NCBI GenBank assembly: GCA_964429775.1
Contig: CAYSDJ010000008.1
Span: 4,261-68,260, forward strand
From: an uncultured Rhizobiaceae bacterium
Lineage (GTDB): Bacteria; Pseudomonadota; Alphaproteobacteria; UBA828
DNA: 64,000 nt
Direction: 5' to 3'
A program made the position numbers and the translations under genes. Of this stretch, positions 1,999-46,848 are shown one piece after another (the stretch's first letter is position 1; every line of letters starts with the position of its first letter). The notes beneath the pieces are model-generated. The model was not told the DNA's origin, made no database searches, and saw only the letters and a program-made list of their open reading frames with translations.

Positions 1999-3636
1999 TT
2001 ATGAGGAATTCGCACGCTCACGCAGCACGAATTTTTGGATTTTGCCGGTCGCGGTCTTTGGCAAGGGGCCAAATACCACGGCGCGGGGAACTTTGAAGCG
2101 TGCCAAATGGTCGCGGCAAAAATCGATGATATTTTCGGCGCTGACCTCACCACTGTCTGGCTTAAGGTCGACAAAGGCATGGGGCGTCTCACCCCATTTT
2201 TCATCTTCCTTCGCGACCACCGCCGCCTCGAGAACCCGCGGGTGCTGGTAGAGAACATTCTCCACTTCAACGCTCGATATATTTTCTCCGCCTGAAATGA
2301 TGACATCCTTGGAACGGTCACGCAGCTCGACATAGCCGTCTTCATGCATCACCCCGAGGTCGCCGGTGTGGAACCAGCCACCGGCAAAGGCTTTTCCGGT
2401 TTCTTCCGGATTTTCAAGATAGCCCTTCATCAGCGTATTGCCGCGCAACATGATTTCGCCCATCGCTTGCCCGTCGGCGGGTAGCCGTTGGCCGGTTTTC
2501 GGGTCGGCGACCGCGACATCGGATAAGGCCAGGGTTTGAACCCCCTGGCGCGACATTTTCGCGGCGCGCGCATCGACCGACATGTCCGGCCAGTCGTCCT
2601 GCCATTCGGCGATCAATGAGGGGCCGAAACATTCGGTCAAGCCATAGAGATGGGTGACGCGGAAGCCCATATTCTCCATCGCCGCGATAATCGCGCTCGG
2701 CGGCGGCGCGCCACCAACCGTCACATCGACCTGATGGCTGAATGCGCGCTTTTCCTTCTCAGGCGCGTTGGCGATCATATTGAGCACGACCGGCGCCCCG
2801 GCCAGGTGCGTGACCCGCTCCTCAGCGATCAGTTCGAATATCTTTTTCGGCTCGACGCGGCGCAGGCAAACATGGGTGCCGGCCAGCGCCGTGACACCCC
2901 ACGTGTAGGTCCAGCCGTTGCAATGAAACATCGGCAGGGTCCAGAGATAGACGCTGTGGGCTGAGAGCGACGCCGCCAAAACGTTGGAGAGCGCGTTCAA
3001 ATAGGCGCCGCGGTGATGATAGACCACGCCTTTTGGGTTGCCGGTGGTGCCTGACGTGTAATTGAGCGTAATCGCCTGCCACTCATCGGCCGGGCGCGAC
3101 CAATCGTAATCCGGCGCACCGCCGGCAATAAAATCTTCATATGACTGATCGCCGAAATCCGACGTGGACGGCGTCTCCCCTTCAGGGTCATCGACCACCA
3201 CGATATGGGGCTGCCGGCGGCTCAGGCTAAGAGCTTCATCAAGGACTGGCGCGAATTCCCGATCGACAATGACCAAAACACTCTCGGCGTGATCCAGCAG
3301 GCGCCCGATCAACGCCCCATCGAGGCGCGTATTGAGCGCGTTCAGCACCGCGCCGGCCATCGGCACGCCGAAATGCGCCTCCAGGGTTTCCGGAATATTG
3401 GGCGCCAGCAACGAGACCGTATCGCCGATGCCGATGCCGCGCGCCGCGAGCGCGCCGGCCAGGCGGCGGCAGCGCGCGTAGGTGTCGGCGTAGCTCTGGC
3501 GCCGCGCGCCATGAACGATCGCCGTCCGCCCCGGATGCACAAGCGCCGCCCGGGCGAGAAAGTCCAAGGGGGTAAGCGCCGTGTGGTTCGCCGGATTGGG
3601 GTCGAGATCGATATCGTAGCGGCTTTTTTGGGCCAA
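1999..3636 (-). CDS. AMP-dependent acyl-CoA synthetase/ligase
   Basis: AMP-binding motif LNYTSGTTGNPKGV and the downstream ligase core. It sits directly upstream of the ACAD gene, consistent with an operon. Confidence 0.85.
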   Translation of the reverse strand: MAQKSRYDIDLDPNPANHTALTPLDFLARAALVHPGRTAIVHGARRQSYADTYARCRRLAGALAARGIGIGDTVSLLAPNIPETLEAHFGVPMAGAVLNALNTRLDGALIGRLLDHAESVLVIVDREFAPVLDEALSLSRRQPHIVVVDDPEGETPSTSDFGDQSYEDFIAGGAPDYDWSRPADEWQAITLNYTSGTTGNPKGVVYHHRGAYLNALSNVLAASLSAHSVYLWTLPMFHCNGWTYTWGVTALAGTHVCLRRVEPKKIFELIAEERVTHLAGAPVVLNMIANAPEKEKRAFSHQVDVTVGGAPPPSAIIAAMENMGFRVTHLYGLTECFGPSLIAEWQDDWPDMSVDARAAKMSRQGVQTLALSDVAVADPKTGQRLPADGQAMGEIMLRGNTLMKGYLENPEETGKAFAGGWFHTGDLGVMHEDGYVELRDRSKDVIISGGENISSVEVENVLYQHPRVLEAAVVAKEDEKWGETPHAFVDLKPDSGEVSAENIIDFCRDHLARFKVPRAVVFGPLPKTATGKIQKFVLRERANSS

Positions 3637-6049: not shown

Positions 6050-9000
6050 CTATCGGTTGGTTTCGGGCCGCGGCTGTACGACCTCCGGCTCCTCAACTTC
6101 GTCGCCAGTTACGTCGCTTTCCTGGTCAAATATGGAGAACAGGTTTCTGAGGAATCCGGGCGCCAGTGCGGCAAGCGGGTTGACCGTCACTTTCGGCTCT
6201 TCCGTGGTGCCCTTGACCGAGAAAGTTGCGGCAAAAATTCCTTCGCCCTCGCCGCCGACCAAAAGATCACCGATCAAGGGGATATTGCCGAGAATACTGT
6301 TGAGCGCATAGGCCGGAACGATGGTTCCGCGCATGTCTACCCTGCCATTGTCGAGGTTGACCTTGCCGGAGGCGATTACACCGATCGAGAAGCCGGCGGT
6401 TTGTGCGCGTTCGACAGTCACAATGCCGTCCTTCAAGGCAAATGGCAGGTGGAAATCGGAAAATGTGATGCCTTCGCCCTGCAGAGCGTCAAATATGCCG
6501 GTGAAAGAGGCGACCGCCAGGATTTGCGCCAATGTGGGCGCATTGATGACCTTATAATCCTCAATTTGAACTTCGCCGTCTACCGGAGCGCCGGGCTGAT
6601 CGTCATGGATGGTCGCATCGAGCACCAGACTGCCGCCGATAACATCGTCATAAATATTGAACGCCCGGGCGACGGAGCCGGCATCGTTTGAGCGCACCAC
6701 AAGGCGACGTTTGGCCGCGCCATCGGGCTCAATAATGAGACGAATTTCCGAGCCCGAAGTGAGCGTGCCGATGAGAATGGCCGATTCCAGGCGTTCGGCG
6801 GTATTGACGACGCGGGCGCGCGCATCGGTAATCTGTTGATCGGCGCGGGTAATCAGGCGCTCGACATTGGCCTCAAGGATAAATGGCGGCAGATTTTCCT
6901 GATCCGTATCGCGCAATTGCTTGATATAGGGGCGTAAATCCAGGCTTTTGCCACCGACATCAAGAACAATGTTGTCGATGTCGTCGCGCTTGTAGCTGAC
7001 CGTCACATCATTGTCTCCGAGTTGGACGCTGCTCAACTCGGCGCTAATCAGGTTGCCATGTTTCGGGCCAATTTCGGCTTGTCCCTTGACTCTGAGGTCC
7101 ATCGAATTCAACTCGAAATTGGTAATCTCGACATTCTTATGATCTTCGAGGCGCGCCAGAACGAGGATCGAGGCGCGCTCGCCGACCGGCTTTTTCCAGA
7201 ACAGTTCGGGAATTTCCATATGTGCGTTCTCGGCGCCAAGGGCGGCTGCAATGTGCTGCGCGCCATCGGGCGAGACAGTGTATGTGAAATTCATATCGAA
7301 CGGCCCGATGGCGAAGGGTGCCACATTGACACCAAAGGTCTCGCGCGCCTGCTGGTCCAATATTGCGGAGATATCGTAGCGGCTTTGGAATGGCGCCTCG
7401 GGCGAAAAATTCTCAATCCATTTCACTTCGGCCGGCATGCCCTCAATCGCAATCGATCCGCCGACTTCCATATTGTTTTCATCCAGCGTAAGACGCATCC
7501 GCCCGTTGCTTACGTCATAGTCACCGAACAAATCACGGACGTTGAGATCATTGAGGCGCGCAACGGCGGCAAATTGCACTTCGTCGAACGTAACATCGCT
7601 GCGAAAGGGTAATTGTACCCCCATTTCGGCGGCCACATGGCCGGTAAATTGTTCGCTCTTCAGGCCCATCTTGCTGGGATAGCCAAACCTTGGACCATCG
7701 AGCAAACTGATTGCGTTATCGGCCGGGCCTTCAACATTGGCGATGATCGTCAACATCGCCGAATCCAGCATCAGGTCGGTGATCAAAGCGACACCGGTCG
7801 GTGCGTACATCCGCTCGATCGTGCCGTCGCGCATGTCCATGAACAGGTTGGCGCCATCGATATGGCCCTTGCCATCCACACCATAGGCATAAGGCTGTTC
7901 GGGAAAATAATTGACGGTGGCGTCGCGGTAACTGAAATCGACATCAATCGCCTTGGGGCGCATGCCGCGCTGCACCAGGTCTATTTCACCCGGCTTGATA
8001 TCGAAATCGACGGTGAAATTCGAAATCACGCCGTCAAACACATTGGCCAATATCCAGCTTCTGGCATTCGTCATCAGTGTGTCGGGCCAATAATTCTTAA
8101 GGTCGTCAAACGGCATTTCCTTAAATTCGAATGTGCCGCCGATAGCAGTCTGATCGGAAATTCCCGACAACTCCCCGGAGAAGTTAAATGTCGGCCCGCC
8201 TGTGTCGATAAACAAGCTTTCGAGATTGAGCGTGTCAAAACTTGCGTCGGCGTCGCCCTGCAAGCGCAGCGAGGCGATGTTCGGCGGGGCGGGTAAAATC
8301 TTCGGCACCATCAGGGAACCGGCACCGCCGGCCAGGTCGAAATTTATCTTGTCAGTCAAACTGCCGTCCTGATTGACGGTAAACTCCAGTGCGCCCTCGA
8401 TTGGCAATTTAAAGGCGTTAAGCGCGTCCAGCTTGGGCGAAATTGCGGCCAGTTTCGCCGGCACCACTTCACTGAATTGGACGTTGGTGTGGACCTTGCC
8501 GCTGGCGCGCTCAAACGCGGTTGCCGCAACGACCCGGAGGGCAACATCGGCAACTTCAATATCGGCCAGGAGTTCGCCATCAATTTTTTCGCCGTCGAGG
8601 TCGAAAATCAGATCCGCTTCCGGTGCGTGCCAGGACAGACCCAACAGTTCATCGTCAACCCGCAAAGCGGCCGAGAGAATGCTGATCCGTTTCAGCTGCC
8701 CGAGCGGATGGTCGGTGCCGGGTGCGGCAAGGAAATCCGCGATTAGTTCATTAACCGCTTCATCGGGTTCTTCGAATTCGGAACCGAAAGCAAACTCCAA
8801 TCTGCCATCGAGATTGCGCACGAGATGAACCTCCGGATGGAGCAGCTCAACACTGGTCGGCGCGATCTGCCCTTTCAGCAGCGAAAGCGCGCTAAGGCCG
8901 AGGGAAATCTTCGGTACTGACGCCAATACCTCGCCCTCGGGCCCGACCGCATATGCATCTGTGATCAGAATATCGAGCGATCTGTTCCACCCGGCCCAGG

Positions 9001-42030: not shown

Positions 42031-42411
42031 TTACCAGTGCCAAACCTGGTCATGCGCATCGCATATGGCGGGAATATTCGAGCGCGATACCTGCTTGACG
42101 CCATCAACCAGATTTGCGTCCGCCAAGCCGCGCTCGGCCAAATCCTCGCTGGCGATATACACCTCTACGCCTTTGCCGACCAGGCCGCCGATATCGCGCG
42201 CCATGTTCGGCGGTTGGGTTTGTTTCCAGGCGCCAAATGAGAGCCCGGATGCGTCCTGGCCGTTGATCGCGTAATTGACGGCATTGCCGCGCAACAAAAC
42301 ATTGAGATCAGCACCCGCACCTTTCATCGCGTGGCTGATCCAGACGATGGTATCGTCTTGCTCCTCTTGCGTGGCGCGGTAGGCCGATTCGATAACCTGC
42401 AATACTTTCAT
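42031..42411 (-). CDS. DsrH/TusB-like sulfur-relay family protein
   Basis: Small protein, third gene of the DsrEFH-like triad, with a TusB-like LLRGNAV...W C-terminus. Confidence 0.45.
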   Translation of the reverse strand: MKVLQVIESAYRATQEEQDDTIVWISHAMKGAGADLNVLLRGNAVNYAINGQDASGLSFGAWKQTQPPNMARDIGGLVGKGVEVYIASEDLAERGLADANLVDGVKQVSRSNIPAICDAHDQVWHW

Positions 42412-42420
42412 GATCCCCTC

Positions 42421-42834
42421 CTAGCGCGTGCCGATGGTGAGCGTGTTGTCGGACTCACCAGCCATGGACCAAAGATCCCCCGGCGTGCCGCGCCTGACAC
42501 CATCGATGGCATCGCCGACGCCGCGTTCATCGACACAGAGACCGCAATTCACCCAATCCAGTTTACCGCCATTTTTCTTGGCCTCGGTGATCAGCGCCGC
42601 GACCCAATCCTTGGGCAAGGGATGGTTTTCCTCTTCCACGTCATGTCCGTGCACCGCATTGGGATGCGCCGCCTGCTGGGCAAATGGCACACATACGGCC
42701 CCCTCATAAGCGAATACGTTTATGTCATAGCCGCGCGCCGCGGCGATATTCATCAGACGCAGCGCCGTGGTGTTGCGCGCGCTTTCATAGGGCGCGTCCA
42801 TCAGCGCAAATGTCAGTGTTTTCTTGTCAGCCAT
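42421..42834 (-). CDS. DsrE/TusD-like sulfur-relay protein with conserved Cys (NCGLC) and His-containing insertion
   Basis: MADKK...APYES N-terminal block. A Cys lies in the position of the TusD/DsrE active-site Cys (WVNCGLCVDERGV). Confidence 0.55.
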   Translation of the reverse strand: MADKKTLTFALMDAPYESARNTTALRLMNIAAARGYDINVFAYEGAVCVPFAQQAAHPNAVHGHDVEEENHPLPKDWVAALITEAKKNGGKLDWVNCGLCVDERGVGDAIDGVRRGTPGDLWSMAGESDNTLTIGTR

Positions 42835-42844
42835 TATCCCCTCC

Positions 42845-43171
42845 CTAATGCCACATGGTTTTGCAGCCGTCGGCCAAACCGTCGACGACAACATCCAGCG
42901 GCGATGATTTCACCCCGACCTGCAATTGCGCCGCATCAATGGCGCGTTCGCGCAGCGAAAAATCATCCGCCAACACTTCGATCCCCGCTTTTATGGCGCT
43001 TTCCAGCGCATCGGAACTGGCGCCTTGACGCGCCGGCAACACACCGTTCTGAACGAGAAACAAGGTGACCTCATTGCCTTCGTTCGCGAGGCCCCGGGCG
43101 AGGTCGAAATAATTGCCAACATCAGCTGATTCATAAGGGTCGCGAGATTCGATTAAGAGATATTTGCTCAT
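42845..43171 (-). CDS. DsrE/DsrF-family protein (no active-site Cys; DsrF/TusC-like)
   Basis: MSKYLLIESRDPYES...VTLFLVQNGV has the DsrE/F fold pattern. It is the first gene of the triad. Confidence 0.55.
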   Translation of the reverse strand: MSKYLLIESRDPYESADVGNYFDLARGLANEGNEVTLFLVQNGVLPARQGASSDALESAIKAGIEVLADDFSLRERAIDAAQLQVGVKSSPLDVVVDGLADGCKTMWH

Positions 43172-43321: not shown

Positions 43322-43912
43322 ATGAGTTCCGACGCAGCGGATGCAAAAACAGCGCTTAGAGTGAGAGCGCTTGAATCGTTGCTGCTCGAAAAGGGGCTGA
43401 TCGAGACGGACGCGATCGACGAGCTGGTCGATATGTTCGAAAACCGGCTTGGCCCCTGGAACGGCGCCAAGGTCGTCGCCCGGGCATGGACCGACCCCGC
43501 CTTTAAGGAGCGGCTGTTGCAGGACGGCACGGCGGCGCTGGCGGATATGGGTTTCGACACCATCCAGGGCGAAGAAATGGTGATCGTCGAGAACACCCCA
43601 GCTATCCACAATGTTATCGTCTGCACGCTCTGTTCCTGCTTCCCCTGGGCGGTCCTCGGCCTGCCGCCGGTATGGTATAAATCGGCGCCCTACCGGGCCG
43701 AGGCGGCGCGCGACCCGCGTGGTGTGCTGCGCGAATTCGGCACCGAAATAGACGGCGAGACCGAAGTACGCGTGTGGGACAGCAATGCCGAGCTACGCTA
43801 CATGGTGTTGCCCGAGCGGCCGGCGGGAACCGACGATATGGACGCAGCGGCGCTGGCCGAGCTGGTCACACGCGATTCGATGATCGGTGTCAGCAAGGTG
43901 GCGCCGCCATGA
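43322..43912 (+). CDS. nitrile hydratase alpha subunit-like protein (Co-type claw motif VCTLCSC)
   Basis: Near-collinear with Rhodococcus NHase alpha. The [10 protein letters not shown] metal-binding claw lies at nt 43622..43639. An RBS AGAAGGGAG precedes the ATG. Confidence 0.9.
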
Positions 43913-43937: not shown

Positions 43938-44249
43938 ATGAACAGCATTCACGATATGGGCGGCATGCACGGCCTCGGACCGCTTGATCTTTCAGACGAT
44001 GATATCGTCTTTCATGCCGCCTGGGAGGGCCGCGTCATGGCGCTGGCCCGCGCCATGATGGCGGGCAAGCACTTCAATCTCGATGAATACCGTCACGCCA
44101 TGGAGCGCATCGACCCGGCCCGCTACCTGCAACTCAGCTATTATGAGAAATGGCTGGAAGGCACGCTCACGATGCTGATGGAGAAGGGCGTTATCACGCA
44201 GCTGGAGTTCGATGCGCATTTAAACAAATTGACAGAGGCGGATTCGTGA
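43938..44249 (+). CDS. nitrile hydratase beta subunit, N-terminal-half protein (split beta)
   Basis: MNSIHDMGGMHGLGP...FHAAWEGRVMA matches the NHase beta N-domain. It ends at the domain linker. Confidence 0.8.
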   Translation: MNSIHDMGGMHGLGPLDLSDDDIVFHAAWEGRVMALARAMMAGKHFNLDEYRHAMERIDPARYLQLSYYEKWLEGTLTMLMEKGVITQLEFDAHLNKLTEADS

Positions 44250-44599
44250 TGCCGGTGGTCAATCTCGAATTGGTCAAGAGCCTCTACAAAACCCCTGGCG
44301 CCGCCCGCTTGCCGGTCGATGTGGCGCCGCGCTTCAAGGCCGGCGATTCGATCGTCGCGCGCAATATCAACCCGCCCGGTCACACCCGCCTGCCGCGCTA
44401 TATCCGCGACAAGAAAGGTGTTGTCGAACACGATCTCGGCGTCTTCCACCTACCCGATTCACGCGCCGCCGGCAGCGGCGATAACGCGCAGCACATGTAC
44501 ACCGTGCGCTTCGAAGCACGCGAAGTCTGGGGCGACGAAGCGCCGGCCAATGACAGCCTGCGGATTACACTGTGGGACGACTATATGAACCCGGCCTGA
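44249..44599 (+). CDS. nitrile hydratase beta subunit, C-terminal-half protein (split beta)
   Basis: The ATG overlaps the previous stop (TGATG). FKAGDSIVARNINPPGHTRLPRYIRDKKG...YTVRFEAREVWG matches the NHase beta C-domain. Confidence 0.8.
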   Translation: MPVVNLELVKSLYKTPGAARLPVDVAPRFKAGDSIVARNINPPGHTRLPRYIRDKKGVVEHDLGVFHLPDSRAAGSGDNAQHMYTVRFEAREVWGDEAPANDSLRITLWDDYMNPA

Positions 44600-44621: not shown

Positions 44622-45344
44622 ATGCGAAAAATCCTCGCCGTGCCGAACCTCACCATGCCCGAGCAACGTGCCGGCGCCACCCTGCCGCGCGACAGCGACG
44701 ATGTGGTTTTCTCCGAGGCATGGCAGGCACATGCCTTTGCCGTGATTATGTCGCTCTATCAGGATGGTCATTATAATTGGGCCGAATGGGACGATTATCT
44801 CGGCCATTGCATCCAGGCACCCGGGCATTTCGCCAAAGCCCCGGGCGAAGACACCGAAGGCGGCGAGGAAGCGATTCGTACTGGAAGCAATCGAAGCCCG
44901 TTCCTTACCGCCTGTGAGCGTGACGGCGCGAAATATTATCATTTTTGGCTCGCCGCGACGGAACAATTGCTCGACGCCAAAGGCCTGGTGAGCACCGCCG
45001 AATTGGATGCGCGTGTTGCCGCCATCGACAAGGCCGAACAGTCCGGGCCGCGCTTTAGCGCCGGAGGGCGCGTTCTGGTGCGAGACATCAAGCGCGAGGG
45101 CCACACCCATCTGCCGCTCTATCTGCGCGGCAAGACCGGCGTGGTGGAAAGCGACCGCGGCTTGTTCGTCTTTCCCGAAGGTGCCGGGCATAATCATGAT
45201 CACGATCATAAGCATGACGGTGCCGACACCCTGCAGCATGTCTTTTGCGTCCGCTTTTCAGCAACGGATATTTGGGGTGAATCAGCTTCCGCCACACATG
45301 ATTTGAATTTCAATCTCTGGGACTATCAGTTGGAGGCAGCATGA
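44622..45344 (+). CDS. full-length NHase beta-like paralogue / accessory (activator)-like protein with His-rich insertion (GHNHDHDHKHDG)
   Basis: The N-terminus (LPRDSDDVVFSEAWQAHAFAV) resembles NHase activator/accessory proteins. The C-terminus (GGRVLVRDIKREGHTHLPLYLRGKTG...FCVRFSATDIWG) resembles the beta C-domain. Confidence 0.7.
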   Translation: MRKILAVPNLTMPEQRAGATLPRDSDDVVFSEAWQAHAFAVIMSLYQDGHYNWAEWDDYLGHCIQAPGHFAKAPGEDTEGGEEAIRTGSNRSPFLTACERDGAKYYHFWLAATEQLLDAKGLVSTAELDARVAAIDKAEQSGPRFSAGGRVLVRDIKREGHTHLPLYLRGKTGVVESDRGLFVFPEGAGHNHDHDHKHDGADTLQHVFCVRFSATDIWGESASATHDLNFNLWDYQLEAA

Positions 45345-45943
45345 TGGAAAAATCTGCTGCAGGTGAGCTGGCACGCCTGATTCGTGAGGATGACGGCGCT
45401 CTCTATGCCGACGATGCCGCCGCCCGCGCCATCGCCATCGTCATGAACCTGTTTCACCAGGAGCATTACGCCTGGCCGCAATGGGTCGACAAGTTCAGCG
45501 CCGAAATCGATGCGCCGGGGCATTTCCGGCATTCGCCGGATAGCGCCGAACACGCCGAGGCCGTGCTGAGCGGTGACGCCAAGCGCATCAATCGCAATTA
45601 CGCCGAGCTGTGGCTCGCCGCTTGTGAAAAGCTATTGCAAGAAAAAGGACTAACGACGCCAGCTGAACTTAGCGCCAAGCTGGCAACGCTACAGCCTAAA
45701 CAACCGCCCGCCCATGCCTTCGCGCTGGGCACGCGCGTTATTGTGCGCGATATCGAACCGTCTGAATCAGATCATTTGCCGCTATTCATACGCGGCAAGG
45801 CCGGCAGCGTGGAACGGCAATTGGGCGAGGCTAAATATAATGTTCGCTTCACGGCGCAAGAGATTTGGGGCACCGACGCACCCGGGCGGGACAGTTTAAA
45901 CTTCACCATCGCGCACCAATATCTGTCGCCCGAAAACTCCTAG
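45341..45943 (+). CDS. second full-length NHase beta-like paralogue / accessory-like protein
   Basis: The ATG overlaps the previous stop (ATGA). Features are DDGALYADDAAARAIAIV... and a beta C-domain-like GTRVIVRDIEPSESDHLPLFIRGKAG...YNVRFTAQEIWG. Confidence 0.7.
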   Translation: MMEKSAAGELARLIREDDGALYADDAAARAIAIVMNLFHQEHYAWPQWVDKFSAEIDAPGHFRHSPDSAEHAEAVLSGDAKRINRNYAELWLAACEKLLQEKGLTTPAELSAKLATLQPKQPPAHAFALGTRVIVRDIEPSESDHLPLFIRGKAGSVERQLGEAKYNVRFTAQEIWGTDAPGRDSLNFTIAHQYLSPENS

Positions 45944-46848
45944 AGCCAGGCGGCGCCGCGCATGCCGCTTTCGGGCCCGTGTGCCGCTTTGACCAAGCGC
46001 GTGGCGGTTGGTTTCGTGCCGGTATGGCGCCCCCAAAGCTCGGGAACCTGCTCATAGAGGCCGCTGATTTCCGACAGGCCGCCGCCGAGAACAATGATAT
46101 CGGGGTCGAAAAAATTGATCGCGCTCGCCAGTGCGCGGGCCAGACGCTCGGCATATTGCGAGATCGCCTGTTTGGCCGCCGCGTCGTTCTCCTCGGCGAG
46201 CCGCGAGATTTCCTTGGCTTTGGCCTCGCTTCCGCTCAACGCCTGATAATCGCGCGACAAGGCGGCGCCGTTGAGCCAGGTTTCGATACATCCTATCTGG
46301 CCGCAGCCGCACATTGTTTCCGCGCCATCCTCCGGCGTGCGCCACGGCAAGGGATTGTGGCCCCATTCGCCGGCAATGGCGTTGGCGCCGGTGACGATTT
46401 GCCCATTGACGACAATGGCGCCGCCGACACCGGTGCCGAGGATGACGCCAAACACCAGCTTGGCGCCGGCAGCGGAACCATCCGTCGCCTCCGAGAGAGC
46501 AAAACAATTGGCGTCATTGCCGATATGGACCGGACGCTCAAACAGGCGCTCGAGATCGGGGCGGAACGGCTTGTCGCGAAGCCACGGCAAATTGGCCACC
46601 ATGACGGGCTCGCCCGAACGATTGACCACGCCCGGCATGCTGATGCCGATCCTGTTGGCCCGCCCGGCATGTTCCTCGAGATGCGAGACGGTATCGGAAA
46701 TATTCTCGACGGTGCCGTTATAATCGCGCGATATTTCGCTGCGAAAGCGCGCCCGTTCCCTGCCCTCACCGTCGAGGATCATGGCTGCTATTTTTGTTCC
46801 GCCGATATCGATTCCGATACGCATATCAGCGCCGCCGGTTTCATTCAT
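45940..46848 (-). CDS. ROK-family sugar kinase (N-acetylglucosamine kinase-like)
   Basis: MRIGIDIGGTKI and the CxCGxxGC zinc motif (CGCGQIGCIE). An alternative start lies at 46824. Confidence 0.8.
   Translation of the reverse strand: MNETGGADMRIGIDIGGTKIAAMILDGEGRERARFRSEISRDYNGTVENISDTVSHLEEHAGRANRIGISMPGVVNRSGEPVMVANLPWLRDKPFRPDLERLFERPVHIGNDANCFALSEATDGSAAGAKLVFGVILGTGVGGAIVVNGQIVTGANAIAGEWGHNPLPWRTPEDGAETMCGCGQIGCIETWLNGAALSRDYQALSGSEAKAKEISRLAEENDAAAKQAISQYAERLARALASAINFFDPDIIVLGGGLSEISGLYEQVPELWGRHTGTKPTATRLVKAAHGPESGMRGAAWL

Follow-up and report, generated by a model that had tools for sequence, protein, structure and literature searches.

Two tandem long-form accessory proteins as probable maturation chaperones of a split-beta, cobalt-type nitrile hydratase

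In a 64,000-nucleotide stretch of DNA from an uncultured Rhizobiaceae bacterium (contig CAYSDJ010000008.1; hereafter the window), two tandem open reading frames (ORFs) close the operon of a three-subunit cobalt-type nitrile hydratase (NHase), in which the catalytic beta subunit is encoded by two separate genes, betaN and betaC. Our results suggest that the products of these ORFs, p240 (44622-45344, plus strand; 240 amino acids, 26.6 kDa) and p200 (45341 or 45344 to 45943, plus strand; 200 or 199 amino acids, 22.1 kDa), are probably long-form maturation proteins (activators), that is, cobalt-insertion and subunit-swapping chaperones of the NhlE/NhhG/P14K lineage which have retained an SH3-like C-domain. 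Judged by their sequences, they represent an uncommon form of an established helper family and not a second enzyme, and the alpha subunit encoded at the head of the operon is their presumed client. The evidence comes from sequence analysis, namely domain make-up, loss of catalytic residues, tree placement, operon position, purifying selection and conservation.

An original prediction, made from the nucleotide sequence, had described two ORFs at 44622-45943, each joining an activator-like N-terminal region to an SH3-type region resembling the beta C-domain. Both ORFs were found there, and the profile searches which that prediction had proposed returned matches to an accessory-protein family and to a beta C-domain family in each. 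Against TIGR03889 (nitrile hydratase accessory protein; curated cut-off, 46 bits), p240 scored 56.9 bits and p200 41.1 bits, slightly under the cut-off; PF02211 (NHase_beta_C) matched p240 with an E-value of 1.1e-19 and p200 with one of 6.2e-11. p240 consists of an accessory-type helical N-domain (residues ca. 16-137) followed by a beta-C-like SH3 domain (residues ca. 139-240). The same two-part layout was seen with weaker scores in p200, a second, more diverged long-form paralogue, in which the accessory signature is degenerate (ALYADDAAARAIA where PVFxEPWQAxAFA is expected). The Pfam matches, PF21006 and PF02211, correspond to this arrangement of a helical N-domain and an SH3-like C-domain. 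When the families were aligned by hhalign with 16 short accessory proteins, the p240 family gave a probability of 99.9% (E 1.2e-35, covering profile columns 12-134 of 137) and the p200 family one of 99.3% (E 1.6e-20). The scores against TIGR03888, the catalytic beta model, were 99.8 bits for p240 and 52.1 bits for p200, both well below its cut-off of 152.2 bits.

Sequence matches of the two proteins to solved structures were exclusively catalytic NHase beta chains, with no accessory-protein chain among them; residues 22-239 of p240 align with residues 17-218 of the 219-residue beta subunit of Pseudomonas putida NRRL-18668 (PDB 3QXE chain B). A Foldseek search with the p240 model placed NHase beta chains (E 1.8e-12) and the alpha subunit of thiocyanate hydrolase at the top, and nothing else was returned by phmmer or Foldseek. 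AlphaFold2 models of each protein alone, another step that had been suggested at the outset, were confident in the C-domains only (predicted local distance difference test, pLDDT, 75-91 overall and 80-91 for the C-domain of p200).

The long forms can also be told apart from catalytic beta subunits by two conserved arginines. Arg52 and Arg149 of catalytic beta (P. putida numbering, used throughout; the latter is Arg157 in Pseudonocardia thermophila numbering) hydrogen-bond the oxidised cysteine ligands. A joint alignment was made of the P. putida beta, the betaN and betaC of the window, other beta subunits, both long families and short accessory proteins, and residues were counted over 85 members of the p240 family and 52 of the p200 family (the latter at 90% clustering). 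Both arginines were present in every catalytic beta aligned and were replaced in all members of both long families. The position of Arg52 is taken by Asp57/Asp58 in the p240 family (85/85 and 84/85) and by Val49/Asp50 in p200, and that of Arg149 by His163 in all 85 p240-family members (within GHTH; codon at 45108-45110, plus strand) and by His145 in all 52 p200-family members. The equivalents of Tyr68 and Trp72 are retained, as Tyr/Phe105 and Trp109 in p240 and as Tyr87 and Trp91 in p200; His145, Tyr87, Trp91 and Cys95 are invariant in the p200 family. Both long families also lack the N-terminal arm MNGxHDxGGxHGxGP (P. putida beta residues 1-16) and an interdomain segment of ca. 26 residues. 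The phrase 'full-length beta-like' in the original prediction was thus too strong, since the arm and this segment are absent; the description as two tandem two-domain paralogues stands. The betaN of the window keeps Arg52, Glu56, Tyr68 and Trp72 and aligns over residues 1-90 with residues 1-90 of 3QXE chain B, and betaC keeps the arginine of its GHTR motif and aligns with residues 104-219.

Neighbour-joining trees (300 bootstraps) were built separately for the N-domain (112 columns) and the C-domain (96 columns). The split between catalytic beta and every accessory-like sequence was seen in 300/300 bootstraps of the N-domain tree, where the long forms were nested among the short accessory proteins, with p240 monophyletic in 231/300 and p200 in 290/300. 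In the C-domain tree, p240 and p200 were separated from all catalytic beta C-domains, including the betaC of the window, in 296/300 bootstraps, from which it follows that the two are old paralogues from one two-domain accessory ancestor. The C-domains are not recent copies of the window's betaC: they form a separate clade, and their identity to it (40% and 39%) does not exceed that to unrelated beta subunits (40% and 38%). Public automatic annotation (NCBI, JGI) names members of both families 'nitrile hydratase subunit beta', a name contradicted by the residue comparison and by the trees.

A C-terminal motif, (A/T)xxxTPHGxP(V/I)xL, is conserved in the short accessory proteins P0153, P0155, P0157, P0160, P0165 and P0220. 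In the alignment this tail, TPHGxPV, falls on PRFxxGxxVxV, where the SH3-like domain of p240 has its first strand, which hints that the short accessory proteins may be truncated descendants of a two-domain ancestor. In evolutionary terms, the long form resembles a stage between catalytic beta and the short activators.

The operon is compact, lies on the plus strand and has the order alpha-betaN-betaC-p240-p200, with tight or overlapping junctions throughout. The alpha gene (43322-43912, plus) encodes 196 amino acids with a cobalt-type metal site, VCTLCSC, and matched TIGR01323 with 303 bits (cut-off, 249.85) and PF02979 with an E-value of 1.4e-87; it is the single alpha in the window, in which tblastn found no second alpha gene and no second NHase. 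betaN (43938-44249, plus; 103 amino acids; PF21006, E 2e-35) and betaC (44249-44599, plus; 116 amino acids; PF02211, E 3.5e-30) supply the N-terminal half and the C-terminal SH3-like half of the catalytic beta, respectively, and meet in a TGATG junction at 44247-44251, where the betaC start overlaps the betaN stop by 1 nt; this division of the catalytic beta had not been mentioned in the original prediction. From the betaC stop (44597-44599) to the ATG of p240 at 44622 the gap is 22 nt, as had been noted in advance. The ATGA overlap that had been described for p240 and p200 does exist, formed by the p240 stop TGA (45342-45344) and the first ATG of p200 (45341). However, the likelier start is another in-frame ATG, at 45344, because a GGAGG ribosome-binding site (45332-45336, plus; within the 3' end of p240) precedes it by 7 nt and because public gene calls begin there (P0094, 199 amino acids, 100% identical). 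The junction is therefore probably a TGATG with a 1-nt overlap, of the same type as that between betaN and betaC.

The arrangement is conserved among relatives. The searches returned 93 matches for the p240 family and 54 for the p200 family. p240 was present at all 34 species-level loci, 33 of which have the order alpha-betaN-betaC-p240; the hosts are uncultured marine Alphaproteobacteria, labelled Rhodospirillaceae or just Alphaproteobacteria, from samples that include Saanich Inlet, the Arabian Sea, the eastern tropical North Pacific and other marine and deep-water sites. Distant split-beta operons found from their alpha subunits (L046, L047 and L049; alpha 64-68% identical) carry a short accessory gene in the fourth position, encoding ca. 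107 amino acids in L046 and ca. 129 in L047, the two loci that were read ORF by ORF. Because a short accessory gene holds the same position there, p240 appears to occupy the activator slot of this operon type. The ratios of nonsynonymous to synonymous substitution rates (dN/dS) against the orthologues of locus L004 (90-92% identical) were 0.12 for p240 and 0.13 for p200, and 0.11-0.14 for alpha, betaN and betaC; by this measure both paralogues are under purifying selection.

The 150 best N-domain matches among 1.84 billion representatives had a median length of 128 amino acids, and 132 of these 150 were no longer than 170. Among the 17 longer matches that were scanned with Pfam, only P0154, P0211 and P0258, which are p200-like, were seen to have an N-domain of the accessory type with NHase_beta_C behind it at the C-terminus; the p240-family member P0084 is also among the listed matches, and P0194 has both domains in reverse order. 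In P0195, P0204, P0214 and P0221, a short accessory-type N-domain is fused to a weakly NicO-like region (PF03824, 22-26 bits; cut-off, 27.7). These fusions are a possible independent hint, at the level of sequence, that the accessory domain works beside cobalt import.

The His-rich insertion predicted in the 240-residue protein was confirmed as a His/Asp-rich loop, GHNHDHDHKHDG, at p240 residues 189-200 (45186-45221, plus). When the loop was measured by alignment columns between the FP(E/D) and LQHV anchors in the 85 p240-family members, it comprised 21% His, 19% Asp and 19% Gly, with a length of 10-28 residues (median, 14). Since whole proteins contain 5.5% His, the stretch is not a chance feature. 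At least three His residues were found in 59 of the 85 members and two in 11; the original prediction had named absence of the segment from all orthologues as a case against itself, and this is not what the family shows. At its basal length of 10-12 residues, the loop is the counterpart of the PDTAAHGKGEHPQ loop that lies between two C-domain strands in catalytic beta. Its coding sequence in the window is an imperfect repeat of CAY-GAY codons, which may lie behind the variable length. In the p200 family, the equivalent loop is Pro/Ala/Gly-rich with 0.8% His, and it is reduced to 4 residues in the window copy.

Based on these results, the following course of maturation may be proposed. Known chaperones bind alpha in a ratio of one alpha to two chaperones. 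By analogy, newly made apo-alpha would be held by p240, alone or together with p200, in the beta-like manner and in the place of beta. As a surrogate without the two arginines and with an invariant His at one of their positions, p240 might leave the Cys3 site open for the entry of cobalt, and its His/Asp loop could serve as a low-affinity antenna that collects Co2+ near the complex. After cobalt insertion and cysteine oxidation, holo-alpha would pass by exchange to the enzyme made of alpha, betaN and betaC; a sharing of tasks by p240 and p200 would be our own inference. The models for the analogy are the alpha-e2 complexes and alpha(P14K)2 (PMC3511329, PMC7193024): in alpha(P14K)2, the complex formed by P14K, cobalt is taken up, and the alpha subunit is then swapped into the apoenzyme (PMC3511329).

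Several observations weigh against a role of p240 and p200 as chaperones. The TIGR03889 score of p200 is below the cut-off. The N-domains in the AlphaFold2 monomer models were poor, with mean pLDDT values of 61 and 65, and these models are uninformative on the interface. In 15 of the 85 p240 orthologues the loop has at most one His and thus no His-rich character, from which it follows that the loop is not essential to the core function of the family. p200 follows p240 at ca. half of the 34 loci and is missing from the close relative L001 (alpha 95% and p240 86% identical), and is thus dispensable in some backgrounds. The Monosiga brevicollis NHase was reported to incorporate its metal without need of the (His)17 linker (PMC7193024), and the three-subunit NHase of Streptomyces canus matures without an activator (PMC7329996), from which it follows that a split-beta enzyme is not strictly in need of one.

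Three other explanations have to be set against the chaperone reading. It is not very likely that p240 is a working accessory protein while p200 is a redundant or decaying duplicate of little function and the His loop a neutral expansion by codon-repeat slippage. The patchy occurrence of p200, its degenerate signature and sub-threshold score, and the shrunken variable loop of the window copy would fit such decay, as the range of loop lengths and the CAY-GAY repeat would fit slippage. However, the dN/dS of p200 against its 90% identical orthologue is no different from those of alpha and beta, and this value together with a family of 52 members at 90% clustering that share four invariant residues rules out pseudogenisation; its C-domain is also predicted to fold confidently. 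As for the loop, its bias in composition is kept across lineages only 50-60% identical, so pure drift is unlikely. That p240 and p200 are beta subunits of a second NHase whose alpha gene was lost, a case raised by the original prediction, is extremely improbable. The public annotation and the partial TIGR03888 matches speak for it, but those scores fall far under the cut-off, the arginines and the N-terminal arm are missing from all members, the trees set the long forms apart from catalytic beta with 99-100% bootstrap support, and 34 species retain, under purifying selection, the arrangement with one alpha. The residue and tree evidence thus already contradicts this explanation.

It is also unlikely that p240, with or without p200, acts not as a transient chaperone but as a beta-like subunit of an alternative, non-canonical kind that joins alpha in a second holoenzyme form, whether as a fourth and fifth subunit with a regulatory or structural task or as part of an arginine-less isoenzyme with altered chemistry. 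The two-domain beta layout, the retained Tyr68/Trp72 equivalents in both proteins and the alignment of p240 with residues 17-218 of the P. putida beta are in keeping with this, and the alpha subunit of the toyocamycin NHase alone is said to have some activity (a finding attributed to Nelp et al., 2014). A further point in its favour is locus L034 (1538-3667), where alpha is directly followed by two long-form accessory paralogues and the 7.7-kb contig contains no betaN or betaC; the genes of the split beta lie elsewhere, or else that lineage puts the long forms to a different use. Yet L034 is one metagenome-assembled contig, and at 33 of the 34 species loci a complete catalytic beta (betaN and betaC) lies just upstream. 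The loss of both arginines, the arm and the interdomain segment, the grouping of the N-domain with accessory proteins and the short accessory gene in the same position in relatives' operons argue further against a subunit role. A more specific form, in which alpha assembles either with betaN/betaC or with p240/p200 to give a second holoenzyme with His for Arg near the metal site, a metal-harvesting loop of its own and perhaps another activity or mode of regulation, and in which L034 represents a lineage with the second form only, is very doubtful.

The flanks of the operon vary between loci, which speaks against a conserved functional partner among them (amidase, cobalt transporter or DsrE-like genes). 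Three adjacent DsrE/DsrF/DsrH-like (TusBCD-like) genes lie at 42031-43171 on the minus strand of the window; they are divergent from the NHase alpha gene, with 150 bp of intergenic DNA in between. This trio stands beside the operon only in the window, L001 and L005, and is not found upstream of it in L004 (92-94% identical) or at the other loci; it is thus unlikely to be a conserved partner. At the other end, p200 and a convergent ROK-family kinase gene (45940-46848, minus) share 4 nt at their 3' ends (45940-45943), and in L001, which has no p200, the same kinase gene ends 20 nt past p240. The cobalt transporter genes cbtB and cbtA (about 2400-3302) directly follow the short accessory gene in L046, and in L040 cbtB (2234-2443) comes after two deep-branching long-form paralogues. 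Neither the window nor the long-form loci other than L040 gave a cbtAB homologue; most of the operons of this family are without the transporter that stands beside related ones. A subclade comprising L012-L016, L037 and L039 has two tandem betaN genes between alpha and betaC (e.g. 7006-7329 and 7326-7637 in L039), so that six genes of the NHase family stand side by side; of the two copies, the extra one is 54-58% and the other 63-67% identical to the betaN of the window.

Activators of cobalt-type NHases matter to industry, and little is understood about them; they are small, hard to express and reported to be without a recognisable metal site (PMC3511329, PMC7193024). The larger two-domain form, with an invariant His and a His-rich loop, offers concrete and testable candidates for the path of cobalt, and may prove more tractable for trapping an alpha-chaperone intermediate. 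As sampled, the family is confined to uncultured marine Alphaproteobacteria, and cobalt is very scarce in sea water.

Compared with known systems, p240 and p200 stand closest to NhlE/NhhG/P14K (TIGR03889). Published NHase chaperones are encoded directly downstream of the structural genes, are smaller than 17 kDa, resemble beta weakly and have no known metal motif (PMC3511329). The long forms share the N-domain motifs LPRDxxxPVFxExWQAxAFA, WxEW and DGxxYYxxWLxAxExLLxxKGL, the gene position just after the structural genes (33 of 34 loci; 22 nt after betaC in the window) and the weak beta similarity without the catalytic arginines. They differ in that NhlE/NhhG/P14K are single-domain proteins encoded by one gene, whereas there are two tandem paralogues here, each with an added PF02211 domain that brings it well above 17 kDa, and in that p240, unlike p200, carries the loop as a potential metal motif. 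The original prediction had likewise held that the known chaperones are short and lack the insertion, in agreement with these reports and with the lengths of the relatives.

Catalytic beta of P. putida NRRL-18668 is the best match in sequence and fold and shares the helical N-domain and SH3-like C-domain; the long forms differ from it in the replaced Arg52 and Arg149, the missing arm and interdomain segment, the sub-cut-off TIGR03888 scores and their separate clade. As in the window, the beta subunit is split into N- and C-terminal polypeptides in the Streptomyces canus AnhD/AnhE/AnhA and toyocamycin ToyJKL NHases. The S. canus order is anhD-anhE-anhA with no activator gene, in contrast to alpha-betaN-betaC followed by one or two long accessory genes, and the S. 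canus beta fragment AnhD is itself a metal chaperone and swapping chaperone (PMC7329996). The fused beta-alpha NHase of Monosiga brevicollis resembles p240 in having a His-rich low-complexity segment in a cobalt NHase-family protein, but its His run links catalytic subunits, whereas that of p240 is a surface loop on the C-domain of a non-catalytic accessory protein. HypB, UreE, SlyD and some COG0523 proteins contain variable-length His/Asp or His/Gly low-complexity segments for low-affinity metal binding or storage. The resemblance of the p240 loop to these is one of composition only: apart from an NHLP-type peptide match below threshold on alpha, Pfam and NCBIfam gave NHase-related families, and no homology to Ni/Co/Zn metallochaperones was detected. 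Reviews up to 2026 describe no such long two-domain form (PMC7193024, PMC13243292). What appears to be new, from the sequences, is a complete SH3-like beta C-domain and, in p240, a His/Asp loop on an otherwise known type of accessory protein.

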